Shown here piece by piece: positions 31,730 to 50,557 of a DNA stretch of 64,000 nt (positions are counted from its first letter, which is position 1; each line of letters begins with the position of its first letter). The translations under genes and the position numbers were made by a program. The DNA comes from Candidatus Krumholzibacteriia bacterium (GTDB lineage: Bacteria > Krumholzibacteriota > Krumholzibacteriia > Krumholzibacteriales > Krumholzibacteriaceae). The notes beneath the pieces were generated by a model that saw only the letters and a program-made list of their open reading frames with translations, searched no databases and was not told where the DNA came from. The stretch covers positions 1,664,001-1,728,000 of the forward strand of contig CAWIIQ010000001.1 of the NCBI GenBank assembly GCA_963836185.1. Direction: 5' to 3'.

Positions 31730-34241
31730 TTATACGACTATATTGACAAGGCGCCCGGGAACGACGATCACCTTCCGGATATCCCTGCCATCGATGATAT
31801 TCCCTGATCCTTTCGTCCTCCAGCGCGAGTTTCTCGAGCTCTTCCTTTGAGGCTTCCTTTCAGCTTCGATACGGGAACGGACCTTTCCATTTACCTGTAC
31901 GACGAGCGTATAGACATCGCCCTTCAGCCAGCCCGGATCAGCTTCGGGCAGGTTCTGGAGGAATATCGACCCATTATTGCCGAGACGCTCCCATATTTCC
32001 TCGCAGATATGCGGCGCCATCGGCGCAAGAAGCAGTAACAGTGTCTTAATCGAGTATTTAAATAGCTCGCAGGCGCGTCGCTGCGCTGATGTGAATTCTC
32101 GGATCCCCGTCCATATACAGGTGTATCTCGTTTACGAGTTCCATCAGGGCGCTTATCGCCGTATTGAAATGGAATGTACCGCCAAGTATATCTCTTTTTA
32201 CCCTGTCGGTCGTCTGCTGTGTCTTGCGGTACAGCGATTTCTGAATATCAGTGAGGCTTTCAGGCTCTAATTTCAGGACTCTCTGAGGCAGCCTCCAGGA
32301 TATCGCTGTGGTTCGCATAGAGCCTCCAGACTCTGTTTACGAATCTGGAAGCGCCCTCAACGGCGCGGTCGTTCCATTCAGCGTCCTTTTCCGGCGGTCC
32401 GATGAAAAGTGTGTATATCCTCACTGTATCAGCGCCGTATTTTTCGAGCAGCGGCTTCGGATCTACCGTATTTCCAGCGCTTTTCGACATCTTGGCGCCA
32501 TTTCGCGTTATCATTCCCTGTGTGAAAAGGCTGCCGAAAGGCTCATCAAACGCTACTAACTTCCTGTCATACAGGAACTTAACGATAAACCTCGAGTACA
32601 GCAGGTGTAGGATCGCGTGCTCGATACCGCCGATATACTGGTCCACCGGAAGCCATTTGTCTACAAGAGACGGAATCAAAGGCCTTCCTGTCATCATCAG
32701 GTGACAGATAGCGCAGGAAATACCAGCTCGAATCGACGAATGTGTCCATCGTATCGGTATCTCGCAGGGCCTTACCGCCGCAGGCGGGACAATCGACGTT
32801 CACAAAGTCATCAGATGCCGCGAGCGGCGACTTTCCATCACCCCTCGGCATGAAGTCGACATCCTCGGGGAGCAACACAGGTAGCTGATCCTCGGGCACA
32901 GGCACGATTCCGCATTTAGCACAGTGTATCATCGGGATCGGAGCGCCCCAGTATCTCTGCCGCGAGATCAGCCAGTCCTTCAGCCGATAGTGGACCGTCC
33001 TGCGTGCCAGGCCCTTTCCGGCGAGAAAATCGGTGATCGTCTCCATCGCATCCCGATTACCGCGTACCGTCGAACTGCCCCGAGTTTATCATCGTCCCGT
33101 CATCGACATATGCCTCTTTCATCTCTCCAGGCTGACTACCTTCGGGCAGTATGACCTGGACCACGGGAATCTCTACTGGAGACTCCTGCACAAATTCGAA
33201 ATCTCTCTGGTCGTGAGCCGGCACACCCATAACTACGCCCGTTCCATAATCCATCAGGACATAGCTGGCAAGGAAGACCGGTATCTTCCATCCTGTGGCC
33301 GGGTTGACCGCGTAACATCCTGTGAAGAAACCCTCTTTTGTAAATTCTGTCTTCTCCCGTTCCTGGAGGCGCAGTTCACGGGCATGGGCGACGAAGGCTT
33401 TACCTTCATCCTCCCTCCCCCCTCTTTCCAGCATACCTTCGGCAAGGGGATGATCGGCCGCTATTACGATGAAGGTCGCTCCGTATATCGTATCCACACG
33501 CGTGGTGAAGCAGTCCAGCACATCATCGCTGCCCTCGAGAGGAAAAGCGACCTCGACCCCTTCGGATCTCCCTATCCAGTTCTTCTGCATCACACGGACA
33601 CGTTCGGGCCATTTGTCAAGCTTTGCAAGATCATCGAGAAGCCTGTCAGCATAATTCGTTATCCTGAAAAACCATTGCTTGAGATCTTTCTGCTCGACCG
33701 TGCTGTCGCATCTCTCGCACTCCCCTCCCACCACCTGCTCGTTCGCCAGGACAGTCTTGCATGAAGGGCACCAGTTCACTGATGCTTCAGCCTGGTAGGC
33801 GAGCCCGGCCTCGAACAGTTCGCGGAAAAGCCATTGCGTCCATTTGTAGTAGTCCGGTTTGCAGGACGCGACCTCTCTCGACCAGTCGTATATCACACCC
33901 CACTGATCGAACTGTTTTTTCATGTAGGCTATATTATCTTCTGTCCATTTTGCCGGCCTGATATTGTTCTTGATCGCGGCATTCTCCGCGGGCAATCCGA
34001 ATGAGTCCCAACCCATAGGAGCCAGGACATTCCTGCCCTCCATCATCTTGTAGCGCGCAAGAGCATCCCCGATGATATAGTTCCGGCCGTGCCCGACATG
34101 AAGGTATCCCGAAGGATAGGGGAACATCATGAGGCAGTAATATTTGTCGTCAGTATCGGCAGAATCACAGCGGAACAGATCTCCCCAGCGATCATGCCAT
34201 TTTTTTTCAGCTTCCCTGAAGGGAAAGAAATCCTCCATCAT
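31730..34241 (-). CDS. leuS: Leucine--tRNA ligase, multiple frameshifts
   Basis: [61 protein letters not shown] spread over five ORFs. Confidence 0.95.
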
Positions 34242-35975: not shown

Positions 35976-36491
35976 CTACCAGTCCTGTACGGTCGCCGCG
36001 AGGATGCCTTCCACCAGGTCCTGGTAGACCTCCGCAAGCGCATTCTCATAGTTCTGGTCCGCGGTGGTTTCGAGGTAATAATCCCCATGCGCCCTTATCA
36101 GTTTCTCCTCGTATATATAAGCATTCTGCGACGGGCTGAAGAGAGACACTTTTATCTCTATCATCAGGCGGTACTGCTCCGCCTGGACCTGTGTATCGCT
36201 CTGCTCGAACGTGAACGGCGTATTCCTGAATTTTATCACCGAGCCTTCGAGGGTAGCGTCAGATTCAGTCTCATCTACGACCTTGAGGGTGTTGTCTTTA
36301 GCTATCCCAAGTATTATCTGATCGGTGATCTCTATCTCCACATCCGGCTCGGATGTCTTGTTCGTGAAGTACGGTACGGAGATCCTGGCTATGTCACCGG
36401 CCGTCCTGCTCGTCGTCCCGTAATATGTGCATGATATCATCGCAAAGACGCAGAAAAGACCGACTATGACTGCTGGAGGCCTGCTACTCAT
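35976..36491 (-). CDS. lptE: LptE-family lipoprotein
   Basis: Lipobox MISC, ISVPYFTNKT, ADATLEG-like segment, adjacent to holA. Confidence 0.8.
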   Translation of the reverse strand: MSSRPPAVIVGLFCVFAMISCTYYGTTSRTAGDIARISVPYFTNKTSEPDVEIEITDQIILGIAKDNTLKVVDETESDATLEGSVIKFRNTPFTFEQSDTQVQAEQYRLMIEIKVSLFSPSQNAYIYEEKLIRAHGDYYLETTADQNYENALAEVYQDLVEGILAATVQDW

Positions 36492-37908
36492 CCCCGTTGC
36501 CGCCCTGTCCCATATCGAAGTTCTTGAGCCTGTATCTCAGTTTGTCACGGTTCAGGCGCAGGAGTCTCGCTGCCCTGCTCTGGTTGCCGTCCGATTCTTT
36601 CATGGCTTTTGTTATCAGTTCGATCTCAGTGTCACGCACCATGTCCTCAAATTCGATACCCTCATCAGGATATGGTCTTCCAAGAGCTGCCTCGAGATGC
36701 TGAACGACAGATCTGCCTGGTGCGTCTGAACCCCCGCTTCGTATACTTTCGGGCAGGTGCGCCGGCCTCAGGATCGAATCGTCCTCCAGCAGGACGATCC
36801 TCTCAACGATATTCTTCAACTCACGGATATTGCCAGGCCACGGGTAGGCAAGGATCATCTCGAACGTCTCGTCAGCCACCTCGACAAAATTCTTGTTGAA
36901 CTGTTTATTGAACCTGCTGAGAAAATGTTTGAGGAGAACGAAGATGTCCTCCTTGCGCTCGCGCAGCGGTGGAATAAAGATCGGGATCACCTTGAGCCTG
37001 TAATAGAGATCCTCGCGGAATACCTTCTCACGGACCGCCAGCTCAAGGTCCCTGTTCGTAGCCGAGATGATCCTCACGCTGACTTTTATATCCTTTGTCC
37101 CCCCAACCCTTCTGAATGTCATCCTTTCAAGGACCCTGAGGAGCTTGACCTGGATCGTGAGACTCATCTCCCCGATCTCGTCGAGAAACAGAGTGCCCTT
37201 GTTGGCAAGTTCCAGAAGACCTACCTTCTGGACCTTCGCGTCGGTAAAGGCCCCCTTTTCGTGCCCAAAAAGCTCGCTCTCGAGAAGTTCCTCCGGCAGA
37301 GACGCGCAGTTTATCTCAAGGAACGGCTTGTCGTTCCTGGGGCTGTAGCGGTGGATCATATTGGCGATCATTTCCTTGCCCGTCCCGCTTTCACCCTGGA
37401 CAAGGACCGTCGTGGTCTCACTCTGGGCAACTGTTCTCACGACGTCATAGATCTCTTTCATCTTGGCGCTTTCGCCGGGAACATGCCCGTCGTCCATATC
37501 GATCTTGAGCCTTCGCCTGAGCTGGAAAAGCTCCCTGTTGAGCTTCTGGGATTCCAGGCCCTTCTCGACGGCCAGAAGAAGCTGCTCCAGATTGACAGGT
37601 TTACTTACGAAATCGAATGCACCTTTCTTTATGGCGGATACAGCGGTCTCTATGTCACCGAAAGCTGTCAGCATGATCACGCTGACCTCCGGGACCTCTT
37701 CCTTGACCCGCTGAAGGACCTCGATTCCATTGATATCTGGAAGCTTGAGGTCGAGAAGGATCAGGTCGGGGAGCTCGCTCCTGGTCAGTTCAAGCGCTTC
37801 TTCTCCCGTCGCAGCCGTCAGGGCCTCATATCCCTCGTCTGTGAGTGTCTTTTCTAGAAACAGACGAATGGTGTCTTCATCATCAACCAGAAGCACTACC
37901 GGTTTCAA
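36484..37908 (-). CDS. NtrC-family sigma54-dependent response regulator
   Basis: Receiver domain (LVDDE, LLDLKLP), GESGTGKE, GAFTDA, WPGNIREL, Fis-type HTH. Confidence 0.96.
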   Translation of the reverse strand: MKPVVLLVDDEDTIRLFLEKTLTDEGYEALTAATGEEALELTRSELPDLILLDLKLPDINGIEVLQRVKEEVPEVSVIMLTAFGDIETAVSAIKKGAFDFVSKPVNLEQLLLAVEKGLESQKLNRELFQLRRRLKIDMDDGHVPGESAKMKEIYDVVRTVAQSETTTVLVQGESGTGKEMIANMIHRYSPRNDKPFLEINCASLPEELLESELFGHEKGAFTDAKVQKVGLLELANKGTLFLDEIGEMSLTIQVKLLRVLERMTFRRVGGTKDIKVSVRIISATNRDLELAVREKVFREDLYYRLKVIPIFIPPLRERKEDIFVLLKHFLSRFNKQFNKNFVEVADETFEMILAYPWPGNIRELKNIVERIVLLEDDSILRPAHLPESIRSGGSDAPGRSVVQHLEAALGRPYPDEGIEFEDMVRDTEIELITKAMKESDGNQSRAARLLRLNRDKLRYRLKNFDMGQGGNGDE

Positions 37909-39964
37909 CTTTTCCTCCCTGTACTGGTCGCGTCACGGGCAGATAGACGCGGAATATCGTACCATCACCAGGCTCAGAAATCACCTTTATACTCCCCTGA
38001 TGATGCTGAATTATACTGTGAGTCACAAACAGTCCAAGTCCCGTTCCACCCTTCTTTCTCGAAAAAAACGGCAGAAATATCCTCTGCTTGTCCCTGCTGT
38101 CTATTCCCGGACCGTCGTCCGCTACATCAAGGATGATGAAATCCTTCCCCTTCTGCCTTCTCATATCGGATTCCCTGTCATCGAACGTCTTGACCCGGAC
38201 ACTCACGTGCCCCCCCTCTTCCACAGCTTCAGCGGCGTTCTTGATCAGATTGATCAGCACCTGAGTGATCTGGTCCGGATCTACTTCGACCTTCGGGACT
38301 TCAGGCTCGACACTTGTGGTAAATTCCACCTTTCTGGAATCCAGAATGTCGCTGATAGATTTGAACGACTTTTCTATGATGACGGCCGTATCAGATTCCT
38401 GATACAGAAGATCTCGCGGCTTCGCTACCTTGAAGAGATCCGTGATGATCCTGTTGAGCCTCGCCACCTCCGCCAGGATGTGAGTTATGTTCTCCTTGTG
38501 CTCCTCGCTCAGTTCGGCACTCCTGTCGAGATACTGTATCCCCGCTGCTATCCCCGTGAGGGGATTCCTTATCTCATGGGCGACAGCCGAAGTGAACCGC
38601 CCGAGGACAGCGAGATTGTCAAGATGACGGATCGCTTCTTCCATCCGCTTGATCTCACTGAGGTCTGCGAAGAGAATGATCGCTCCCTGCGTCTCAGTAT
38701 CATCGCCTATCAGGCGGGATACGTTCATCCTTAGCGGTATACATGAATCCTCCTGGCACATGAGATAGGCTTCGTGAAACGCTATTGGATCCCCGCTGTC
38801 CAGCGCCATGAATACCGGCGAACCTTTTCGAGGCTTCCCCGAATCATTATCACAGATCAGCTCATCTATGTTCCGCGCCAGTAGCTCCTCTTCGCTGAGG
38901 CCGCTCATCTCTCTCGCGCTTCTGTTGGCAAATGTGATGTTTCCATCCATATCCGAGACTATCAATCCATGCATCATGCCCTCGAAGACCTTCTCCCGGA
39001 ACCTTTCCTCCTGGCGCAGTTCCTGGTACAGCATCCAGTTCTCCATGTTGGAACCGACAAGAGAGCCGACGGTCTCCACTGTGACCTGGTCTATGTTTGT
39101 CAGCGATGTAGCCCGGTAACCGTCCGTAACCAGAAGGGCGCCGAGCAGAGGAAGGTCCGGGCATGCCAGGCATTCAGCTCGAGTCAGGAAGGGAATCGAT
39201 TCTTTCAGTTCCTTCTCGCACTCCCCCATCTGCCTGAGGATGCATGAATCAGTCTGACAGCAGCCCCTTTCGCCCGAGGATTTCATCAGAGGCACACATA
39301 TGTATGAGCTCATGGTGCTGTCGGGAAAGAGGTGCTCACCTTCTACGTCAATAAGAGGATGCATCCTGACATCTTTGATGAGAAATGCCTTCCCGGTCGA
39401 AAGAGAGTTTCTTATCGCACCGTCAAGATCTTCCAGCCCGAAATTGACTACGCGGCGAACGACCCGGGTAGCTCTCTCGATCGATACTATTGCCTGGAAG
39501 CAATGTTTTCTTTTCCGGAGTATTATAAACGCCGCTTCCTTGTAGCCGACGCCATGCACGAGGTAGTCGAAGACTGAGTCGACCAGCTTCTTCTCGTCGA
39601 GGGAGCTTATGATGCTGCGCCCGATCTCTTTGAGGCTGAGGAGCTGGATGTTCTTCTCAACAAGCTTGAAGAGAGTCCTCTCGAGATCGGTAAGGAGCGT
39701 GATTATCATCCTGTAGAAGACATCATCGCCTGTGTCTCCGATATTCTCATCGAGAAAGAGTCCCTCGCTCTTGAGATTCGATAATCGCTTATGAATATTG
39801 TCGATACGTTTGCCGCGCATCTGCCTGCGCTTAAGGCTGGCACCGACTGCCACAGCGATCCCTGCCGGGATAAGGACCCAGGCTGCGGGAGGCCACAGGG
39901 CGACCACTACGATAAAAACCGTATACAGGCCACCTATCCAGAAATAATCATGTATCCATCGCAT
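37883..39964 (-). CDS. Membrane sensor histidine kinase (GAF + PAS)
   Basis: Two N-terminal TM; AHEIRNPL; NLIKNA, DDGPGI, GTGLGL. Confidence 0.94.
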   Translation of the reverse strand: MRWIHDYFWIGGLYTVFIVVVALWPPAAWVLIPAGIAVAVGASLKRRQMRGKRIDNIHKRLSNLKSEGLFLDENIGDTGDDVFYRMIITLLTDLERTLFKLVEKNIQLLSLKEIGRSIISSLDEKKLVDSVFDYLVHGVGYKEAAFIILRKRKHCFQAIVSIERATRVVRRVVNFGLEDLDGAIRNSLSTGKAFLIKDVRMHPLIDVEGEHLFPDSTMSSYICVPLMKSSGERGCCQTDSCILRQMGECEKELKESIPFLTRAECLACPDLPLLGALLVTDGYRATSLTNIDQVTVETVGSLVGSNMENWMLYQELRQEERFREKVFEGMMHGLIVSDMDGNITFANRSAREMSGLSEEELLARNIDELICDNDSGKPRKGSPVFMALDSGDPIAFHEAYLMCQEDSCIPLRMNVSRLIGDDTETQGAIILFADLSEIKRMEEAIRHLDNLAVLGRFTSAVAHEIRNPLTGIAAGIQYLDRSAELSEEHKENITHILAEVARLNRIITDLFKVAKPRDLLYQESDTAVIIEKSFKSISDILDSRKVEFTTSVEPEVPKVEVDPDQITQVLINLIKNAAEAVEEGGHVSVRVKTFDDRESDMRRQKGKDFIILDVADDGPGIDSRDKQRIFLPFFSRKKGGTGLGLFVTHSIIQHHQGSIKVISEPGDGTIFRVYLPVTRPVQGGKVETGSASG

Positions 39965-40046: not shown

Positions 40047-40862
40047 TCAGCAGGCGCCTTTCCCCGAAATGACGACATAGATCGTCTTGAAGAGGATCTT
40101 TATCTCCTGGACGATAGAGAGCCCGACGATATACTGCAGATCGTAATACAGCTTTCCCGTCATCTGCTCGACCGTCTCGGTATACCCGTCCTCGACCTGG
40201 GCAAGCCCCGTAATTCCGGGTTTTACCTTTAATCTCAGAGGAAATTCTGGCAGTTCCTGACGGACCTGGTTGATAAAGAAGGATCTTTCCGGCCTCGGAC
40301 CGACAATGCTCATATCTCCCCGGATCACATTGATGAACTGGGGAAGTTCATCGATCCGCGTACGCCGCAGCAGGTGGCCGATCCTCGTTATCCGCGGATC
40401 GCCCTTGCTTGAGAGAGTAGGTCCTGCTTTCTCCGCATCCATGCGCATGGTCCTGAGCTTGTAGATGTTGAACGGCTTGCCGGCATGGATCTTCTTCCGC
40501 CTGTCATTTTCCGCTCTCCTGTCGAGACCGTTATAACCTTGCGCTCTATCTCCCCTGCGGTCCGTTCCTCTCCTGTTCAGGCCTATCCTCTCCTGTTTGT
40601 AAAAGATCGAACCTGGCGATTCGAGCTTTATCAGGATTGTCGCGGCGAGGATGACCGGCGAAAGGAGCACCAGTGCGGCGCCGGCGAAAACGATATCGAA
40701 GATCCTCTTGATCCTGTCGAAGGTCGAGGGTATCACGACCTGTTCGTCACTGACGACATCACCTAGGTAGGCAATATCACTGACTAGAGGATCGATACTC
40801 GTCCTCGCCAGCGGGATCGCCGTGTCGAAGTTGCTGATCGCTGTTCTATTGAATACTACCAA
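40047..40862 (-). CDS. Priming sugar-phosphate transferase (WcaJ/EpsL-type catalytic domain) with Arg-rich insertion
   Basis: KRIFDI, KLRTM, DPRITRIG, DELPQ, GDMSIVGPRPE, KPGITGLAQV. Confidence 0.93.
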   Translation of the reverse strand: MVVFNRTAISNFDTAIPLARTSIDPLVSDIAYLGDVVSDEQVVIPSTFDRIKRIFDIVFAGAALVLLSPVILAATILIKLESPGSIFYKQERIGLNRRGTDRRGDRAQGYNGLDRRAENDRRKKIHAGKPFNIYKLRTMRMDAEKAGPTLSSKGDPRITRIGHLLRRTRIDELPQFINVIRGDMSIVGPRPERSFFINQVRQELPEFPLRLKVKPGITGLAQVEDGYTETVEQMTGKLYYDLQYIVGLSIVQEIKILFKTIYVVISGKGAC

Positions 40863-40925
40863 CTCAGACCTTTCGCACCTTGATGATTCGGATACACCTG
40901 TCCCAGATCGACGATTAATAAGGAT

Positions 40926-40941
40926 TGCAACTTCCGTACCC
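40926..40941 (-). promoter_or_regulatory. sigma54 (-24/-12) promoter
   Basis: Minus strand GGGTACGGAAGTTGCA. Confidence 0.65.
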
Positions 40942-41143
40942 CACCATCATAATTCCACACTCACATAGAAAACAGGTGAATACACACGCATAAGTCACTA
41001 CGTATACATCTGTTAGAAAACCGTTAGTTGTTGTGAGCAAATTGCCGGACAGACCCCACATCCCAAATCATAGGTAATAATACCCATATTTTTCAAGCGA
41101 GTTGTGGATTTTTCCGCAATTTTTGCCGCTTATCCTGGCCAGA

Positions 41144-42688
41144 TCATGGGGTTGCTGTCGTGACTTCGTTACTGCGTGAGTACTGCCCACCCATATCGTA
41201 GACCAGTACTCTATAGTAGTACGAATTCGCTCCGTTGTCAAGCCCCGTATCGTCGAACCATGTGATTTCCCTGTTAGTTAGGACGCTCACGAGCTGCGAC
41301 GTTTCTGTGACTCCGGGCGATGTATCCCTGTATATCCGGTACTCCGAGAAGTCTGAGTCCGGATTTATAGTCCATTCCAGAGTAAGCCTGTCCGAACCGA
41401 TGGATGAAGGATCGCTCAGCACGACCGGGACAGGCAGCGCATCGAATGTCGACGCTGCTATCTCGTTGCTCCCCGACGCCTCACCCAGGTCGTTCGTCAC
41501 GTATACCCTGTAGTAGTAGGTAACACCCTGGTCGAGGTCGGAATCTGGATAGGTGGTCTGGCTCTTGAAATCCAGGCCCTGGACAAAGAGGGCCGGGTCG
41601 TCAGTGACACCAGGCTGCGTATCCCTGAATATCGTGTAGGCAGCGAAGTCTGTTTCCTGTGATTCCTCCCACCGGATAGTTATCATGCTCGTCGTAGAAT
41701 CGATAGATCCTATAAGCAGAACAGGTTCAGGAGGATCGGTAAAAGAGATACGGTCGGACCATTCGAGGGGAACGGACTGGTTCCCCACACGATCCGTAAA
41801 ACTACCTACTACAATCAGATCAGTTCCCCTGAAGATAGAAGGGAACGTGTAATCAGCCTCGTAACTTCCGTCTCCGGCGACAGGATCCCCTCCCCTGCCG
41901 TCATCGAAGAGATCTATCGGTCCCGCATTGAGACCCTCTATCTCAACGGAGGCAATACCGCCTGATTCATTGCCCTCTACGTCCATCGCGAGGTGAATTG
42001 TCGATCCGACACTGTATGTGTGCGGTTCAGGCGTGATCGCGAGGTCCTCGATCGCTGAATATGTATCCAGTTCTATCGTCGCGCTTACTGGCGGAGACAG
42101 GGCTCCCGACTGATCCTGGAACGAAGCATAGACCGTCTTCGGCCCGTCACCCTCCGTGAGCATCCAAGTCCGCGCTTGAGAGTAAGCTTCCCAGACAGTG
42201 GATCCGAAATCAGGGACATCCGATATACGCATCACTGCTGTCGAAGCCGGAGCGGTCAGGGCCAGTTCGACTACCATCGAACCGGTATATTCCAGCCCTG
42301 CGTTTATAAGCATCGAGTAGACAGAGGGCATGGCAGGGGCAGGTTCAGACCGGGCGCTCTCAACGCCGGATGATCCTACGGAAGAGATCGAATAGAAGTA
42401 CTGGAGCCCGTTCGTTACGTTCTCATCCACAAAAAAGGTATCGACCGTCTCGATTATCCGCACCCAGGCTTCTCCCAGCGTACTGGACCTGTAGAGCCTG
42501 TAAGAGGCCGCTTCCTCGACAGACGGCCATGAGAGGGCGATCTGCCCGTCCCCGGTGATGGTCCTTATGTTGACGGGCGCCTGCAGGCCCTCATCCTCTA
42601 TTTCCAGCGGTACTTCCTCGATATCGTCGAGACAGGATGGCAGCAGAACTGCCGCAATGAGCAGTATGAATAACATCTTCTTGGTCAT
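41144..42688 (-). CDS. Fibronectin type III repeat lipoprotein
   Basis: Lipobox LPSC; three Fn3-like repeats (YRLYRS, YTIFRD, YRIYRD / YYYRV); DDGRGGDPVAGDGSY motif. Confidence 0.85.
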   Translation of the reverse strand: MTKKMLFILLIAAVLLPSCLDDIEEVPLEIEDEGLQAPVNIRTITGDGQIALSWPSVEEAASYRLYRSSTLGEAWVRIIETVDTFFVDENVTNGLQYFYSISSVGSSGVESARSEPAPAMPSVYSMLINAGLEYTGSMVVELALTAPASTAVMRISDVPDFGSTVWEAYSQARTWMLTEGDGPKTVYASFQDQSGALSPPVSATIELDTYSAIEDLAITPEPHTYSVGSTIHLAMDVEGNESGGIASVEIEGLNAGPIDLFDDGRGGDPVAGDGSYEADYTFPSIFRGTDLIVVGSFTDRVGNQSVPLEWSDRISFTDPPEPVLLIGSIDSTTSMITIRWEESQETDFAAYTIFRDTQPGVTDDPALFVQGLDFKSQTTYPDSDLDQGVTYYYRVYVTNDLGEASGSNEIAASTFDALPVPVVLSDPSSIGSDRLTLEWTINPDSDFSEYRIYRDTSPGVTETSQLVSVLTNREITWFDDTGLDNGANSYYYRVLVYDMGGQYSRSNEVTTATP

Positions 42689-42706: not shown

Positions 42707-43807
42707 TCAGAATCTGTATACGAAAGATGCATGGGTCGGACCCGCGTCAAAGGAGAGATCGGATGGCGGGGCATCTTCCTGCCCCGGTATAAAGGTATCG
42801 ATCACTCCCAGGGCCCATATTCCCGCCAGGACTCCAAAGGATACGTTCCTCCAGCCTCGCGTCTTGTCGACATCGGCCCAGTACTCAGAAGACCGGCTTT
42901 GATAATATTCCTTATCCTCTACTGTGTCGGCGTTGTCAAAATATTCCAGGTTTAACTCGTAGGCATCGACAGCTTGGTCGTAAGTGTTGAGGTAATCGAG
43001 CGCGACGAGAGCTGATACCGTCGATGCCAGGGAGAATAAAACGCCTCTGGAACTCTTACCCTGGTAGAACTGCCCCCTCCCGGGCCGCAGTAATGAGAGA
43101 ATGGCTGCCTTGGCTGTGCTCGCTCCTGATCCTGTTATCTCTACGACAGAGCCTCCGGCTGTGACCGTGGTCCTAGGTGGATTGCCGACTATCCAGGGAT
43201 CGATGAGCTGAAAGGCATACATATATCCCGTATATGCGAGACAGCGTTTTCTATGAGTATTCTGGACGTTGAGATCGCGAGACGCCTGATTGGCGTCGAT
43301 AACGATACTCTCCTTGTCCTCTATGTTATCGGCTGCATCCAGCTGTTCCATCAGGTTAGTGTACCTGTTCTCTATGTGCTGATATTCATGCTGTTCTCTC
43401 AGCGTCACCAGGCCCGCCATCACTATCGATGCGAGATCTGTCCAGCCTGCATGTTTTCTGCCGACGTGGATCGAGCCCCAGCCCGGCACGATATTTCGAG
43501 CGAAAGTACCGAGGCGGTTGCCCCTTACCGACGCCACACCGTTATCATCCAGCGACAGGTAACCCCTCCTTACTTCGTACCCACGCCCCCTCACCGTCAG
43601 ATGATATGTCAGGCCCGGTTCGAGTTCACAGATCGTCAGCGGGACCGTACCGCTCATCATGACACCTTTGCTCAGCTGCACGAGAAGGTCCCCGGAATCA
43701 CCCGAGAAGTGCAGGCAACTCTGTGCACCGGCCTGACCGGACAGCGCGACAAACCCTACAGTCACAATGATCAACAGTATCAATGATCTCTTCATCAGAA
43801 TCTCCAC
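42707..43807 (-). CDS. Exported protein with PEGA-like N-terminus and two PGxG(S/Q) hydrophobic repeats
   Basis: Signal peptide; GTVPLTICELEPG; PGWGSIHVG and PGRGQFYQG; C-terminal Phe. Confidence 0.6.
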   Translation of the reverse strand: MEILMKRSLILLIIVTVGFVALSGQAGAQSCLHFSGDSGDLLVQLSKGVMMSGTVPLTICELEPGLTYHLTVRGRGYEVRRGYLSLDDNGVASVRGNRLGTFARNIVPGWGSIHVGRKHAGWTDLASIVMAGLVTLREQHEYQHIENRYTNLMEQLDAADNIEDKESIVIDANQASRDLNVQNTHRKRCLAYTGYMYAFQLIDPWIVGNPPRTTVTAGGSVVEITGSGASTAKAAILSLLRPGRGQFYQGKSSRGVLFSLASTVSALVALDYLNTYDQAVDAYELNLEYFDNADTVEDKEYYQSRSSEYWADVDKTRGWRNVSFGVLAGIWALGVIDTFIPGQEDAPPSDLSFDAGPTHASFVYRF

Positions 43808-43813
43808 GCCCCT

Positions 43814-44530
43814 CTATTTCTCATCATCTTCAGTATATCCATAATACTTGTAGTCATAATAGTACGGCAGGACTTCCGAAAGGTTGTTTACTACAACTCC
43901 CAGAAGGTTTGCGTTGGCGTCGAGAAGAATGTTCTTCGCCCTCAACGAGACATTCCTGGGAGTCATCCCCGCGAGAAGCACCAGAACGACTCCATCGACG
44001 ACACTCGAAATCAGCATCGGATCGCTGACGGGGATTATCGGAGCGCTGTCCACTATCACTATATCGTAGTAGAATTTTATCTTCTCAAAGATCTCGGTCA
44101 TCACGTCGCCCTCGAAGAGGTGCGCCGGTGACTTGACCCTTCTTCCAGCCGGTATGACCTTGAGATTCTCGATCGGAGTGTCTTTCACGGCCTCCATCGG
44201 ATCGATCTCACCGGTCAGGCACTCATACAGCCCGGGCTCTTTCGGCACATCGAAGATCTGGTGAAGCCTCGGCCTCCTGAGGTCGGCGTCGACCACGAGA
44301 GATTTCTTCCCTCTGAATCTCGCCACGGTGATTGCCAGGTGGGAAGCGACTGTGCTCTTTCCCTCTCCCCTGTTGGCGCTCGTTACAAGAAAACTCCTCT
44401 TGGGGTTTCTCCCGTCGATATGCCTGATATTCGAATAGAGGCGTCTCATCTCCGTAGCAATGGGACTCTCCTGGTCGAAGATATCGTATATCGTCTGCCT
44501 CTCGTCCTTCTCCAAATTACTACCTTCCAA
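43814..44530 (-). CDS. CpsD/CapB-family bacterial tyrosine kinase
   Basis: GEGKST, VDADLRRP, IVDSAP, Tyr cluster YYYDYKYYGY. Confidence 0.94.
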   Translation of the reverse strand: MEGSNLEKDERQTIYDIFDQESPIATEMRRLYSNIRHIDGRNPKRSFLVTSANRGEGKSTVASHLAITVARFRGKKSLVVDADLRRPRLHQIFDVPKEPGLYECLTGEIDPMEAVKDTPIENLKVIPAGRRVKSPAHLFEGDVMTEIFEKIKFYYDIVIVDSAPIIPVSDPMLISSVVDGVVLVLLAGMTPRNVSLRAKNILLDANANLLGVVVNNLSEVLPYYYDYKYYGYTEDDEK

Positions 44531-46193
44531 GAAGATCCTCGCTCAGTTCTACCCCTATGCTGGATTCCTGCAGTGCCTTGGCGTATATAAACATGGCGCC
44601 TGAGATCATCGTGATGAAGAGCAACATGCCTATCGACCAGATCAGGATCATCCTTCCGCGTTTCCTTTTCTCCCACGCGAAGTGAGAGACCGTCTTCGGT
44701 ATCGTTCCAAGGACCGGGAGCTTCAGGATCTTCTGGACCTCATCGACTGTCCTGAACGAATCATCCATATATTCAGTGACTAGTATCGATCCGAAGCCGC
44801 AGATAAGCCCGAACATGGCTGCGATGAGGATGACCTTTATCTTGTCGGGTTTGACGGGCGAGATCGGCCTCTCCGCCTTCTCTATGATGCTGATCCTGAC
44901 ACCGAGATTGGTACTCTGTATCGCCTCGTTGATCTGTGCCGAAGTCTTGGATTCGAGGAAAGCATCATAGATCGCCTGGTTCGTCTCGACCTCATGCGTC
45001 AGCTTTCCCACCTCTCGCTCCAGCTGCGGCCTTCTGCTGATATTCTCCCTGTACTGCTCTATATAACCGTTCAGTTTTCTTTCGGTAGTGCGGAAAAAAT
45101 TCGCCTGTTTACGCTGGAAGAAATACTCTGTGATCAACGGTTTCACGTCATTGGAGAACTCGCCGTACTCGTCATGGACGATCGCCGCGATCCTGCTCCT
45201 CACTTCCTCCCACAACGCCTCATATGCGGTCAGATCGGTGACTCCTTCGTCGTTCCCGGCCAGTTCCTGGAGTATCCTCTCCTCTGTATCGGCCAGGATC
45301 TGACGTTCGAGGTTATTCAGGGTCTCATCGTTCGAGATGCGGTCAGTCGAGGGGATCATACCGAAAACGGTCGTCAATCTCTCTCTGACACGGTTCAGTC
45401 CCATTTCATTTCTACCGACCTGGGCACCGAGAGAATTGACTCTGGCTTCGGCCGCATGAACGTTTGTGCCGTTGATAGGATTTCTTCCGGCACTCGTCGT
45501 AGCGAGCTCTCTTCCGATCCTGTCGAGTTCTTTCTCCGAATCCTCGAGCTTTTCCTTGTAGATAGCGAGCTGTTCGTCACTGAACGCGCCCGCCTGTCGC
45601 AATCCCTGGAGCTTTGCCTGCTGTGTGACCTCGATATATTTGTCACTGATCTTTGACGCCAGGACATGGGCGGTTCCCGGGTCAGAATCCAGGACGCTGA
45701 TTGCGAAGAAACCGGGGAGAGTCGTCCTGACGCTGATCTTGTTCCGCAGGATCCTGACGAGACTTCTCAACGTGAGTTCTTCCCCGGAAAGCCCCTCGGG
45801 ATCAGAGTTTTCCTCGGAAGGTGTCCTCAGCTCATATGCCCTCTGAAGCCCGAGGTCCATTATGACTCCCTCAAGGAACTCCCGGCTCATCAATCTGGTC
45901 TCGATCATAGCCTGGAAGCGCCTGCTCCGGTCCTGCCGGCGGTCCTCCATGGGCGTCACGTACCTGCTCATTGTGCCGGCGAGAATATTCTGTTCTTCGG
46001 CTGAGACCAGGGTAGAGGATTCATAGATCGGCGTAAGTTCCCTTACTCCAAGGAATGCAATAGTGAGCGACAGTATGACAGGAACGAAGAGAAAGAACTT
46101 CTTCCTCCAGAATATCTTCCAGTAGGAATAAAGGTCTATCTTCTGCTCATCATCTTCAGGAACGAATTTACGGACATTCTCCAATTTGATCAC
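44520..46193 (-). CDS. Polysaccharide co-polymerase (Wzz/GumC-type)
   Basis: N- and C-terminal TM, coiled coil, AERPISPVKP, LKLPVLGTIP. Confidence 0.9.
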   Translation of the reverse strand: MIKLENVRKFVPEDDEQKIDLYSYWKIFWRKKFFLFVPVILSLTIAFLGVRELTPIYESSTLVSAEEQNILAGTMSRYVTPMEDRRQDRSRRFQAMIETRLMSREFLEGVIMDLGLQRAYELRTPSEENSDPEGLSGEELTLRSLVRILRNKISVRTTLPGFFAISVLDSDPGTAHVLASKISDKYIEVTQQAKLQGLRQAGAFSDEQLAIYKEKLEDSEKELDRIGRELATTSAGRNPINGTNVHAAEARVNSLGAQVGRNEMGLNRVRERLTTVFGMIPSTDRISNDETLNNLERQILADTEERILQELAGNDEGVTDLTAYEALWEEVRSRIAAIVHDEYGEFSNDVKPLITEYFFQRKQANFFRTTERKLNGYIEQYRENISRRPQLEREVGKLTHEVETNQAIYDAFLESKTSAQINEAIQSTNLGVRISIIEKAERPISPVKPDKIKVILIAAMFGLICGFGSILVTEYMDDSFRTVDEVQKILKLPVLGTIPKTVSHFAWEKRKRGRMILIWSIGMLLFITMISGAMFIYAKALQESSIGVELSEDLLGR

Positions 46194-47128
46194 CTGTTGA
46201 CTATAGCGTAGACTGCTCCATAAGCTGTAACCGCAGCGAGCCAGAAAGTCGGGCTCTTCAATACTGCTAACGCCGTGTTCTGTGCCGGAACGCTGACTGT
46301 ATCATCTGCAAGGATCAGCGGATTGTGCCTGATATCCCCTGTCTCCAGATAGCGTTTGAAGTCAAAAGTCATGGTCAGCTGGCCCCCGTCGGGCAGGGTC
46401 CTGATCACTTTGACCTTTTCCATCCTGGCGTTTTCGGCCCCTCCTCCAGCAGCAAGTATCGCGTCGACAAGGGTCTTATCGCCGGAAAGCATGTATGGCC
46501 CCGGCGTTCTTACAGCGCCGATCACTCGAATCGAACCCGTGGCGGCATGCATCGCCGTACTCTCGGATACGATCACGGCATCGCCCGGGTGGAGAACGGG
46601 AAGGTCGTCGAGATTTCCCGATTCTATCGCCGCCTGGAGATCGACAAGCATGGTTCGCTGCCCTTCTCCTTCAGCCCTGATGATCCTCACTGTCCCGAGT
46701 GCCGCGGTCGATGTCGCTCCTCCGGCCTCCCTGATAGCTTCCCATACGGTAGGATTCTTTTCGAAACCATACTTTCCGGGGGTCACGACCTGCCCATGGA
46801 CGTAGATTATCCTCCTCGATTCTTCACCTAGAAGATTGATCGAGATGGACTGGACGCTCGGATAGATATCCCTCAACGCTCTCAGCAGGACATCCTCCGC
46901 ATCATCGAGTGCCATGCCGCCGATCATGATCTCTCCGACGATCGGGATGGAAACACGACCGGCCTCGTCGATGATGAGTGTTCTGTCGAGTTCGGATCGC
47001 TGGGGGACTGACAGCTCTATCCTGTCACCGGGCCTTAGACTGACCTCCTGGGCCCGCAGGCTGAATGCCAGACAAAGCACGGCGAGTATGATCCCTGATT
47101 TCTTAAAGCCTTTCATCTTGCCTCTCAT
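46190..47128 (-). CDS. Polysaccharide export protein (Wza-like, SLBB domains)
   Basis: LRPGDRI, GRVSIPIVG, VHGQVVTPG, VIGAVRTPG. Confidence 0.9.
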   Translation of the reverse strand: MRGKMKGFKKSGIILAVLCLAFSLRAQEVSLRPGDRIELSVPQRSELDRTLIIDEAGRVSIPIVGEIMIGGMALDDAEDVLLRALRDIYPSVQSISINLLGEESRRIIYVHGQVVTPGKYGFEKNPTVWEAIREAGGATSTAALGTVRIIRAEGEGQRTMLVDLQAAIESGNLDDLPVLHPGDAVIVSESTAMHAATGSIRVIGAVRTPGPYMLSGDKTLVDAILAAGGGAENARMEKVKVIRTLPDGGQLTMTFDFKRYLETGDIRHNPLILADDTVSVPAQNTALAVLKSPTFWLAAVTAYGAVYAIVNR

Positions 47129-47183: not shown

Positions 47184-48125
47184 TCAACGTGTTCCGGACT
47201 GTTTGTACCACTCGACCGTTCTCTTCAATCCCTCCTCGAAACCTGTCTCAACGGAGTAACCGAACAGTTTCTCCGCCATCGAAATATCCGCTTGTGAATG
47301 TTTTACATCACCCGGTCTCGGATCCTCATAGACCGGATCGATCGATACGCCTGTCAATTCACAGAGCATACCGTACAACTCGTTCAGCGTAAATCTTCCG
47401 CCGCAGGCGACATTTATGACCTGTCCTGCCGCTTCTCCCCATCTGGCCGCCATGATGTTCGCCTTGACGATATTTTCGACATATGTAAAATCCCTGCTCT
47501 GCTCCCCGTCTCCATAGATCGTGGGGCTCTTTCCCTCGAGCAGCTTTGTGACGAAGATCGGTATGACCGCCGCGTACTGCGAGGCCGGATCCTGCCTCGG
47601 GCCGAACACGTTAAAATAGCGTATGCTGACAGTCGGCATCCCGTATACCTTCGAATAGACAGAGCAGTAATGTTCTCCCACGAGTTTGCTTACCGCGTAA
47701 GGAGAAAGGGGGGCGGGCAACATGTCTTCCCTCTTGGGATGGACCTCACTGTCACCGTACGCCGATGAGGATGCCGCGTACACCAGGCCCTTGACTTTTG
47801 CCTGTCGCGACTCCTCGAGCACCGTCAGGGTACCGCCGACATTGACCTCGTTGACGAGAACAGGCTCTTCGATGCTCCGCGGAACCGACGCCAGCGCAGC
47901 CTGATGGAGGACGTAATCAACGCCGTCGAGCGCCGCTCTTACCTCGGATGCCTCCCTGATGTCGCCTTTTATAAATCTTATCCCCTGCCGGAAATGCTCT
48001 ATGTTCCCCTCGTGGCCCGTAGAAAGGTTGTCGAAGACAACTACTTCTTCCCCCATCTCCACGAGTTTCTCCGCGATGTTGGATCCGATGAACCCAGCCC
48101 CTCCGGTTACAAGATATCGAGCCAT
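47184..48125 (-). CDS. UDP-sugar 4-epimerase (WbpP/TviC-like SDR)
   Basis: TGGAGFIG, YAVSK, RYFNVFGPRQDP. Confidence 0.93.
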   Translation of the reverse strand: MARYLVTGGAGFIGSNIAEKLVEMGEEVVVFDNLSTGHEGNIEHFRQGIRFIKGDIREASEVRAALDGVDYVLHQAALASVPRSIEEPVLVNEVNVGGTLTVLEESRQAKVKGLVYAASSSAYGDSEVHPKREDMLPAPLSPYAVSKLVGEHYCSVYSKVYGMPTVSIRYFNVFGPRQDPASQYAAVIPIFVTKLLEGKSPTIYGDGEQSRDFTYVENIVKANIMAARWGEAAGQVINVACGGRFTLNELYGMLCELTGVSIDPVYEDPRPGDVKHSQADISMAEKLFGYSVETGFEEGLKRTVEWYKQSGTR

Positions 48126-48147: not shown

Positions 48148-49443
48148 TTACATTGTGACGATGCTGTCGGAGTCGAATTCCTTCAGCACGTTTCTGGCAT
48201 CGAAGATCATCGGACAGTTATCCACGAGCAGAGAGTAATCTACTTCGGTATGACCCGTCACGATGATGGCGCAGTCCATGCCTGCCACCGCGTCCGCGGA
48301 GTATTCCAGGTGCGTGGCCGACTCGCTCTCCTCTTCAAGAGCCTTGACGAATGGATCGTTCCAGTAAATTTCAGCGCCTTTCATATCGAGCAGGCGTATG
48401 ATGTCGTAGGCGGGAGATTCTCTCGTATCATCGATGTCCTTCTTGTACGAGACACCCATGATGAGGATCTTGGAACCGTTAAGGCATTTCTTCCTGTCGT
48501 TCAGCGCCTCAGATACTCTCACCACGACATACCCCGGCATGTCACCGTTGATCACTCCGGCGAGCTCGATGAACCTCGCATCGAATCCGCTCTGCTTTGC
48601 CTTCCAGGAGAGATAGAACGGATCGATAGGTATGCAGTGACCGCCCAGTCCCGGACCGGGATAGAACGGCATAAATCCGAACGGCTTTGTCGCCGCGGCA
48701 TCTATCACTTCCCAGACATTTATACCCATCCTGTTGCACATCATCGCGATCTCGTTCACCAGGCCGATGTTAACGCTTCTGAAAGTGTTCTCCAGCAGCT
48801 TGACCGTTTCCGCAACCCGTGTCGAGCTCACGGCAACCGGATTCATCCCCGCCGCGGAGTACAACATCGCCGCCAATTCGGTGCAGGCCGGCGTAACTCC
48901 GCCGACGACCTTGGGTATATTCTTTGTCGTGAATTTTTCGTTTCCGGGATCGACCCTCTCAGGAGAAAAAGCGAGGTAGAAATCTTTTCCCACCTTCAAC
49001 CCGGTCTCCTCGAGTATAGGCAGCATGACCTCTTCTGTCGTACCAGGATAAGTAGTGCTCTCGAGTATGATCAGCTGTCCCTCATGGAGATATTTTCTGA
49101 TCATTTTGAGCGCAGCCACTATGTAGGAGATATCAGGGTCCTTCGTCTTCCTCAGCGGCGTAGGAACTGCGATATTTATCGTATCGACTTCTGACAGCAC
49201 GGAAAAATCATCCGTGGCGCTGAGGATACCCGATCCTACCACCTCGGAAAGTTCATCCCCTGCGACATCGCCGATATAGCTCCTGCCGGCATTGACTTCC
49301 GTGATCTTCCTTCCGTCAATGTCGATCCCCACTGTTTTCAGGCCTGCCTTGGAAAACTCCACCGCGAGTGGAAGCCCTACATATCCCAGTCCGATAACGC
49401 ACTGCAGCCCTTTGTTTTCAGCTAGTTTTTCCCTTAGTCCCAA
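48148..49443 (-). CDS. UDP-N-acetylhexosamine 6-dehydrogenase (WbpA/WbpO-like)
   Basis: GLGYVGLP, ESTTYPGTT, SPERVDPGN, KLLENTFR, GGHCIPIDP. Confidence 0.93.
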   Translation of the reverse strand: MGLREKLAENKGLQCVIGLGYVGLPLAVEFSKAGLKTVGIDIDGRKITEVNAGRSYIGDVAGDELSEVVGSGILSATDDFSVLSEVDTINIAVPTPLRKTKDPDISYIVAALKMIRKYLHEGQLIILESTTYPGTTEEVMLPILEETGLKVGKDFYLAFSPERVDPGNEKFTTKNIPKVVGGVTPACTELAAMLYSAAGMNPVAVSSTRVAETVKLLENTFRSVNIGLVNEIAMMCNRMGINVWEVIDAAATKPFGFMPFYPGPGLGGHCIPIDPFYLSWKAKQSGFDARFIELAGVINGDMPGYVVVRVSEALNDRKKCLNGSKILIMGVSYKKDIDDTRESPAYDIIRLLDMKGAEIYWNDPFVKALEEESESATHLEYSADAVAGMDCAIIVTGHTEVDYSLLVDNCPMIFDARNVLKEFDSDSIVTM

Positions 49444-49507: not shown

Positions 49508-50557
49508 TCAAGTGCGCCCGGCGAATTCGAGGCTGGAATAAGTCCTGATGCTGTTCTTGCCATCCGACTTCGCTTTATACAGGGCTGTGTCCGCCCTGTC
49601 TATGATCTTCTCGACACTCGAAGCATCTTCGGGATAAACGGAGATCCCGATACTGCAGGTGAGAAGTCCAGGCGTCTTTCCGTCAAACAGGTATTCCCTC
49701 ACCCTTTCGAGAACCCTCTCCCCGTACACGATCGCTCCCTCTCCGGATGTGCCCGGGAGCAGTATCCCGAACTCATCTCCCCCGTACTTCGATACAATAT
49801 CTATCTCCCTGCAGCTCTCGGCAAGGATATTGGCTATATTCGTCAAGGCCCTGCTGCCTGACAAGTGCCCGTTTTTATCATTATATTCCTTGAGGTTATC
49901 CACGTCGAGCATGAGAAAGGAGAAAGAGGAATTAAACCTCTTGGCCCTCTTGACCTCCAGCCGCAACGACCGGATGAGGAACCTGTAGTTAAATACACCT
50001 GTCAACCCGTCCGTGATCGATTCCATCTCAAGTTTGCGGTAAAGCAGGTAGTTCTCGAAAGCGATAGCCGCCTGGTTGGCCATCATCGTCAGGAGATGTA
50101 TGTCATCCTCTGTGAACTGCTGCTGATCCTGGTCCTGGATAGCCAGGATCACACCGAGAAGGGAATTCTTGGCCATAAGCGGAGCCGAGATCACCATGGA
50201 GGACCTGTCGTCGCCCTCCAGACATTCAGTAGCCAGGGTCGAAAGATCTATCGCGAAGACTCCATCGCCTGCCATAGGCACGCTCACTTCGCGGTTCAGC
50301 CAGTTCAGGATACCGTTCGATTCGGGAAGATCCTCGACGATGATCTTCCTGCCCCTGTCCTGTTTCTCTCCCGAGTACTTTACGATCCTGTGATCGTCCA
50401 CGTAGATCAGGTAGACCCTTCTTGCCGGAAGAAGATCAAGTGCGATGTTCAATATCTTGTTGAAAATGACCCTGTTGTCCTTGCCGAGGCTTATCAGGCT
50501 CGTGATCTCGGCAAAAGTACTGAAGAGTACATCTTTTTCATCGATCCTGCCGGACAT
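49508..50557 (-). CDS. GAF-GGDEF diguanylate cyclase
   Basis: TDGLTG, REID I-site, intact GGDEF, DTALYKAK. Confidence 0.94.
   Translation of the reverse strand: MSGRIDEKDVLFSTFAEITSLISLGKDNRVIFNKILNIALDLLPARRVYLIYVDDHRIVKYSGEKQDRGRKIIVEDLPESNGILNWLNREVSVPMAGDGVFAIDLSTLATECLEGDDRSSMVISAPLMAKNSLLGVILAIQDQDQQQFTEDDIHLLTMMANQAAIAFENYLLYRKLEMESITDGLTGVFNYRFLIRSLRLEVKRAKRFNSSFSFLMLDVDNLKEYNDKNGHLSGSRALTNIANILAESCREIDIVSKYGGDEFGILLPGTSGEGAIVYGERVLERVREYLFDGKTPGLLTCSIGISVYPEDASSVEKIIDRADTALYKAKSDGKNSIRTYSSLEFAGRT

Follow-up and report, generated by a model that had tools for sequence, protein, structure and literature searches.

An arginine-rich loop conserved in a priming phosphoglycosyl transferase resembles the c-di-GMP-binding peptide of Caulobacter CleD

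We analysed a stretch of 64,000 nucleotides from a Candidatus Krumholzibacteriia genome (hereafter, the window). Its minus strand carries a polysaccharide gene cluster headed by a cyclase gene and including a small monotopic phosphoglycosyl transferase (PGT; priming sugar transferase) with an arginine-rich insert. The features, in the order of transcription, are as follows:

49508..50557, minus strand: GAF-GGDEF cyclase with Hypr (cGAMP-synthase) marks (Tyr191, Ser235, GGDEF at 259-263; I-site R250-x-x-D253)
48148..49443, minus strand: UDP-sugar dehydrogenase (Pfam)
47184..48125, minus strand: NAD-dependent epimerase/dehydratase (Pfam)
46190..47128, minus strand: Wza-like polysaccharide export protein (Poly_export and SLBB)
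44520..46193, minus strand: chain-length determinant or Wzc N-terminal part (Wzz and GNVR)
43814..44530, minus strand: CapB-type tyrosine autokinase (TIGR01007 above cut-off)
42707..43807, minus strand: DUF5683 protein, syntenic with the PGT
41144..42688, minus strand: predicted lipoprotein with fibronectin-III, syntenic with the PGT
40047..40862, minus strand: small monotopic PGT, 271 aa (Pfam PF02397, E 9.8e-62)
40482..40580, minus strand: Arg-rich insert of the PGT (most of residues 102-124 at low model confidence)
40503..40562, minus strand: insert core in register with the minimal CleD peptide (D101 R102 R103, Y110, G112, R115 R116, N119/D120; counts in 33 inserts below)
36484..39964, minus strand: PAS histidine kinase and sigma-54 response regulator directly downstream of the PGT, syntenic in most families (Pfam)

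The nucleotide-sugar enzymes, Wza-like protein, chain-length protein and tyrosine kinase point to a Wzy-type polymer. Between the cyclase and PGT genes, we found no flippase, polymerase or glycosyltransferase gene. A second polysaccharide cluster lies on the same contig about 20-45 kb past the window end (1746000-1775000; loci L275-L277), with its own export protein, a flippase-like gene, glycosyltransferases and two PGTs lacking the insert. A 282-nt gap precedes the PGT gene. In window 40863-41241, two minus-strand sigma-70-like sites, one in the gap (41096-41067) and one in the end of the upstream gene (41241-41213), suggest that the PGT gene may have its own promoter; 5 such sites were found in the region, compared with 1.6 expected.

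PF02397 (Bac_transf) is the sole Pfam family of the window PGT, which has neither a four-helix bundle nor an accessory domain; all NCBIfam sugar-transferase models scored it below cut-off. In an alignment of 56 sequences, the Asp171-Glu172 dyad, Pro-Arg-Pro 189-191, Lys135/Arg137, Arg166 and P69 were invariant. The structure model matched PglC (Foldseek E 1e-11; TM 0.74-0.77 by target length) and displays the re-entrant helix, Asp-Glu dyad and PRP motif of that fold. The window PGT shares these features and an inferred priming role with Campylobacter concisus PglC (PDB 8G1N, 8E37), S. aureus CapM and the large PGTs WbaP and EpsZ, and differs from them in 31 extra residues at the hairpin turn. 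From its motifs, the window gene is predicted to encode a catalytically intact priming PGT. About 45 N-terminal residues of the protein (window 40730-40862, minus strand) form a conserved extension that has a predicted helix at 29-39 and lies outside the PglC match.

The insert had been pointed out in an earlier note made from the sequence. The peptide quoted there is present as residues 96-127 (window 40482-40577) and splits the Bac_transf match into two pieces; the match to solved WbaP is likewise split. The span given for it, 40491-40580, takes in residues 95-124. From QERIG to the Phe of GKPF, the window PGT has 36 residues, compared with 5 in the two other PGTs of the genome. The insert is built of four modules, N96-R97-R98, D101-R102-R103, D114-R115-R116 and D120-R121-R122, and is modelled as disordered between strands 87-93 and 130-136 (pLDDT <50 over most of 102-124). 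Among 16,474 open reading frames of the genome, shadow frames counted, the pattern DRR-x6-[YF]xGx[DE]RR occurs once, in the window PGT.

We then examined conservation. All 119 closest homologues (window protein excluded) carry the insert, 117 by pattern and 2 by eye, although this set is biased because the query itself carries it. We collected insert-bearing transferases and checked their arginines, as the earlier note had proposed: in 152 distinct long inserts, Arg is found at R98 and R122 in 100%, at R103 in 99%, at R121 in 97% and at R102 in 95%. Lys is almost never tolerated at these positions. N96 is conserved in 97% and D120 in 87% (98% counting Glu), and Asp before RR is enriched 4.6-fold, whereas the spacers are hypervariable. 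Each conserved Arg is written with all six Arg codons (49 inserts), which argues for selection at the protein level, and this codon turnover opposes a DNA repeat or RNA element as the nature of the insert. An Arg/Asp loop on the priming transferase is, on this sequence evidence, real and strongly selected. Searched with Rfam, the window yielded five tRNAs and nothing else. A Tat-type RR signal was dropped by reasoning, the motif being internal. An insert-only profile gave no match at threshold in 1.84 billion representatives, PDB or Pfam, a search that is uninformative because it missed even the PGTs themselves.

The insert spans three phyla: the window's own, the GN15/Zixibacteria group and Gemmatimonadota. 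A close orthologue (best E no higher than 2e-65) was found in 131 of the 151 own-phylum genomes, and every one of the 70 loci examined (30, plus 40 chosen from different families) has an insert, which measures 23-39 residues. For the phylum to which the GN15/Zixibacteria locus belongs, 33 of 41 genomes gave a PGT match, with the insert in 30/30 loci examined; the corresponding figures for Gemmatimonadota were 29 of 51 genomes and 29/30 loci. Over the loci examined, the insert is 21 to 47 residues long. Of 25 Calditrichota loci, 1 carries an insert (L231, long); the other 24 of these nearest Calditrichota PGTs (L159, L231-L254) have a longer N-terminal region in its place. The best 80 of 600 GTDB PGT loci comprised 5 with the insert (all GN15 or Gemmatimonadota), 74 with a short turn and 1 unparsed. 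Scanning 121 genomes from the phylum of the deltaproteobacterial loci with a permissive DNA pattern for the start of the insert produced 27 matches, compared with 14 in the control, and there were no PGTs among the 10 of these matches examined. In a plasmid collection, the best matches were below 60% identity and annotated as ordinary sugar transferases. Of four candidates for longer or fused insert carriers none scored, which is weak evidence.

A tree of loop-stripped cores requires several insert changes, but an AU test on 66 of 184 rows did not reject one origin (p-AU 0.305). Within the Gemmatimonadota sample, a second PGT subfamily (L179, L181-L183, L185, L187) has a 35-38-residue Arg-rich insert at the same turn but, as seen in six genomes, clusters with paralogues that have no insert (SH-aLRT 97). 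This subfamily may have gained the insert a second time or acquired it by a swap; given the p-AU value, we do not claim independent gains.

We compared the insert with known cyclic-dinucleotide-binding motifs. A PilZ domain consists of RxxxR followed by a six-stranded barrel with [DN]xSxxG. The likeness to PilZ suggested by the earlier note did not hold: Pfam detects no PilZ domain in the PGT, and RxxxR occurs in 150/152 inserts because of their Arg content, which predicts that frequency. The likeness to the Arg-rich region of Caulobacter Cle proteins proved stronger than had been claimed, with an ungapped register over NMR-defined contacts, conservation that admits Arg only, and DRR...RRxxD in distant lineages. 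The CleD peptide, solved bound to a c-di-GMP dimer, makes contacts through D154, R155, R156, Y163, R168, R169 and D172; it requires G165 for the turn, is disordered when free, does not bind 3'3'-cGAMP and defines the motif DRR-x11-[R/K]RxxD (PMC7382256). In the same source, binding is weakened about 10-fold by D172A, about 4-fold by R157A and 2- to 11-fold by single spacer deletions.

Aligned with CleD without gaps, the window PGT has all contacts except the last Asp: Asn119 stands at the Asp172 place, with Asp one place late at 120, and Gly104 stands at the Arg157 place. In the 33 distinct inserts of 36 residues, the DRR element at D101-R102-R103 is kept in 29, 32 and 33 sequences, respectively. 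The following positions, at +9, +11, +14 and +15 from the Asp in Cle, correspond to Y110 (Tyr or Phe in 29), G112 (29), R115 (29) and R116 (32), and are missing in most shorter inserts; Pro is present in 14, Asn at the Asp172 place in 20 and Asp at the next place in 32. The pattern DRR-x6-[YF]xG-x2-[RK]R is found in 27 of the 33, compared with at most 1 in 1000 shuffles.

The strict motif DRR-x11-[R/K]RxxD is absent from the window PGT and was found in 5/152 long inserts and 3/31 Gemmatimonadota inserts. Similarly, where Cle proteins have a tandem [YF]xGP[DE][RK]R on a CheY-like receiver, the window protein has one unit, with Leu for Pro (Pro in 14/33), and no receiver domain. Across the 152 long inserts, the Tyr/Phe-x-Gly element is confined to the window's close kin (38/152), the spacer of most members is 2 residues shorter, and a terminal Asp is absent in the own phylum (0/61 inserts). 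In the distant lineages, the short Gemmatimonadota inserts contain [DN]RR-x(8-12)-[RK]RxxD in 20/31 (maximum 2 in 500 shuffles), 26/31 end in RRxxD, and 27/30 of the Zixibacteria group end in RRxx[DN]. These short inserts have no Tyr-Gly unit. The shortest inserts thus retain DRR and RRxxD, just the two binding determinants named in PMC7382256.

Taken side by side, the Cle region and the window insert share a linear DRR...Tyr-x-Gly...RR...Asp arrangement, with equal spacing in the window's subfamily, and disorder without ligand, which is predicted for the window insert. They differ in that Cle has a C-terminal tail on a CheY domain, whereas the insert is an internal enzyme loop in which the [YF]xG unit occurs once instead of in tandem, Asn replaces the last Asp and two RR modules are additional. 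Although it falls outside strict Cle-motif membership, the insert, judged by its sequence, most likely works like the Cle peptide. Among 302 reported carriers of the Cle motif, 91% are CheY homologues, and a sugar transferase is absent from the domains named in section 7 of that paper (PMC5677366).

On the basis of these observations, we propose that the loop is most likely a c-di-GMP-binding switch and that binding likely turns on the first step of polysaccharide synthesis, a reading to which we assign a probability of about 0.57; the interpretation offered in the earlier note is partly supported. The insert would fold round c-di-GMP at the hairpin tip of the PGT. The second strand of the hairpin is predicted to lead directly into K135-x-R137 and then into the mobile loop that closes over substrate in PglC; R137 corresponds to PglC residue 61 in a profile alignment (four tag residues allowed), the start of mobile loop 61-81, which closes on active-site occupancy (PMC10519829). 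Given this connection, ordering of the insert may alter turnover, and in the model the folded loop could act on mobile-loop closure. By analogy with other c-di-GMP-controlled polysaccharide enzymes, the sole basis for a direction, activation would be about two times likelier than inhibition. Alternatively, the ligand may govern where the enzyme is located or how complexes assemble, instead of catalysis.

We next considered which nucleotide the cluster may produce. The earlier note placed an intact-motif diguanylate cyclase at its head, and the window cyclase does have GGDEF and an I-site, but at the position where diguanylate cyclases read guanine with Asp it has Ser235. Its best PDB match is 6D9M (Geobacter GacA), with which it shares the specificity Ser and the cross-dimer Tyr. 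Hypr marks are described as a Ser/Thr specificity residue, GGDEF rather than GGEEF and a non-Arg cross-dimer residue (PMC6456294), and the window cyclase has Ser at the GacA 347/348 position, GGDEF, and Tyr191 in the place of GacA Tyr304. Ser occupies the specificity position in 14/14 cyclase orthologues, and Tyr191, Ser235 and GGDEF are invariant in the 12/12 aligned. In Bd0367, a Ser-to-Asp change abolished cGAMP synthesis (PMC9140294), and c-di-GMP is described as an additional product of Hypr enzymes. From these residues, the window cyclase is predicted to make cGAMP besides c-di-GMP; being of Hypr type, it lends weaker support to c-di-GMP and raises cGAMP as a rival ligand. The specificity Ser, cross-dimer Tyr, GGDEF and intact I-site are common to GacA (PDB 6D9M), Myxococcus GacB and Bdellovibrio Bd0367, and the GAF input is as in GacB (GAF-GGDEF). 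Unlike these known Hypr cyclases, the window enzyme belongs to another phylum, heads a polysaccharide export cluster and has Lys before the motif (KYGGDEF).

A DNA pattern for the Ser form was found in 75 of 151 own-phylum genomes and 9 of 51 Gemmatimonadota genomes, in which the cross-dimer place is Tyr in 6 and His in 3. As an exact match, which a variant enzyme could escape, the pattern was found in 0/41 genomes of the Zixibacteria group, 33 of which have the PGT; by family it was found in 0/10 genomes of f4 and 4/61 of f6, both groups carrying the PGT insert. Where both genes share a contig (41 pairs, drawn from 69 genomes with both genes listed and including non-independent kin), the cyclase gene precedes the PGT on its strand by no more than 50 kb in 40 pairs. 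The co-occurrence of GGDEF proteins, also proposed earlier as a check, is complete (151/151 phylum genomes) and, being saturated, therefore does not discriminate. Genera g19 and g29 have no close PGT orthologue yet have 2-9 GGDEF matches; gene loss does not track GGDEF loss there.

The genome encodes a canonical Asp/GGEEF cyclase, two PilZ matches, one MshEN match and six HD_5 matches, of which five have the c-di-GMP-type RxxR and none the cGAMP-type Rxx(Q/N). In HD-GYP enzymes, Asn/Gln in place of a guanine-reading residue marks cGAMP preference (bioRxiv 10.1101/600031). No EAL domain match was found in this genome (92.5% complete). A search of the genome for the c-di-GMP-I riboswitch gave no match, and the control was likewise silent. 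Elsewhere on the same contig (29886-30869, plus strand), Asp occupies the specificity position of a receiver-GGDDF protein; for Geobacter, a cGAMP cyclase with GGDDF has been mentioned.

The rival ligand leads to a reading in which the loop responds to 3',3'-cGAMP from the Hypr-type cyclase and the cluster is a self-contained cGAMP-to-polysaccharide module, with the PGT as protein receptor. On this view, an ancestor of several uncultured phyla would have acquired a Cle-type c-di-GMP clamp in its priming enzyme, and the clamp would have been retuned in the window lineage, so that GAF input would pass through cGAMP to polysaccharide initiation with no riboswitch needed. The GacA marks of the window cyclase, the constant Ser of its orthologues, the Ser pattern in about half of the phylum genomes (75/151) and the position of the cyclase gene upstream of the PGT are all in keeping with this, as is Asn at the CleD Asp172 position in 20/33 inserts if the HD-GYP Asn/Gln rule is carried over. 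We keep cGAMP as a bold rival for the window lineage, in which Asn has replaced the last Asp. However, the insert also occurs in groups in which the Ser pattern was not detected (the Zixibacteria group, f4 and most of f6), and its form shows no visible link to cyclase presence. As the range of the insert exceeds that of the Hypr enzyme, c-di-GMP is the likelier ligand. It is further favoured by the blindness of the CleD peptide to 3'3'-cGAMP, by the c-di-GMP components of the genome, where 0/6 HD-domain proteins have Rxx(Q/N), and by the c-di-GMP that Hypr enzymes produce too. We regard the cGAMP reading as improbable.

The loop might alternatively dock another anionic thing, be it a partner protein (the tyrosine kinase, the cyclase or the next glycosyltransferase), an acidic lipid or undecaprenyl phosphate, polyphosphate or another nucleotide. 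A disordered Arg-rich loop on a membrane-surface enzyme, varying in length from 21 to 47 residues, would suit such a role; basic residues steer undecaprenyl phosphate in PglC (PMC10519829), and partner-regulated PGTs exist, CapB1 phosphorylating CapM and EpsW acting with EpsZ (PMC12802240). However, mere charge would admit Lys and would not prefer Asp/Asn before each RR, and it leaves unexplained the Asp found in two phyla at the third position beyond the last RR. Moreover, neighbour genes vary between phyla and the motif stays. Docking of this kind seems rather unlikely to us. The insert could also be functionless, either a low-complexity expansion that is tolerated or a repeat at the DNA level, as an imperfect 16-nt direct repeat, 54 nt apart, within the window insert suggests an old duplication, spacers are hypervariable and some inserts are degenerate (for example, locus L125). 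This has already been largely refuted by conservation, with Arg and Asp places fixed over three phyla, all six Arg codons interchanging and the insert in every one of the 119 closest homologues, and it is now very improbable. We thus continue to favour c-di-GMP binding.

Control of priming enzymes has been described through Tyr phosphorylation (CapM, WcaJ) and the response regulator EpsW acting on EpsZ (PMC12802240), and the accessory domain of WbaP senses a nucleotide, UMP (PMC10942596); as described in these sources, none of these controls involves a cyclic dinucleotide, unlike that proposed for the window PGT. In the Caulobacter holdfast pathway, c-di-GMP acts directly on the enzymes HfsJ and HfsK (PMC9980756, PMC5362036). 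HfsJ is a glycolipid glycosyltransferase and HfsK is acyltransferase-like, so that neither is a priming PGT like the window enzyme. In these sources, c-di-GMP control is therefore known inside a lipid-linked polysaccharide pathway and is not known at the priming PGT. Post-translational control of Wzx/Wzy systems is described in 2025 as incompletely understood, with c-di-GMP control placed in synthase-dependent pathways (PMC12802240).

A full-text literature search, covering few subscription papers and no supplements, returned no work on this insert, on a cyclic-dinucleotide-binding or -regulated PGT, or on c-di-GMP or cGAMP in these phyla, in agreement with the earlier suggestion that the control point is undescribed in this form. 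In the main text of a PGT survey (PMC11626204), 'insertion', 'arginine' and 'c-di-GMP' are all absent, as is 'insertion' from PMC10186338. Both parts are known; their combination and the control point appear new. If the proposal is correct, a nucleotide sensor built into the priming enzyme would place a new point of control at the step committing scarce undecaprenyl phosphate, and the Cle motif would be a portable module beyond Alphaproteobacteria and CheY proteins. If the ligand is cGAMP, the PGT would be a protein effector for Hypr signalling, for which the sources consulted name riboswitches as readers; the available text of PMC8844925, PMC8835794 and PMC10118264 names no protein reader of Hypr-made cGAMP, which is no proof that none is known.

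Two further observations concern other genes. On contig C3 (467919-470132, minus strand), a 737-aa protein resembles a cellulose-synthase catalytic subunit, a family label given by reading only, and has a PilZ match at its C terminus. In the window, leuS (31730-34241, minus strand) is split over at least four overlapping or adjacent frames (33057-34241, 32579-33046, 32260-32697 and 31730-32020), likely owing to assembly indels.
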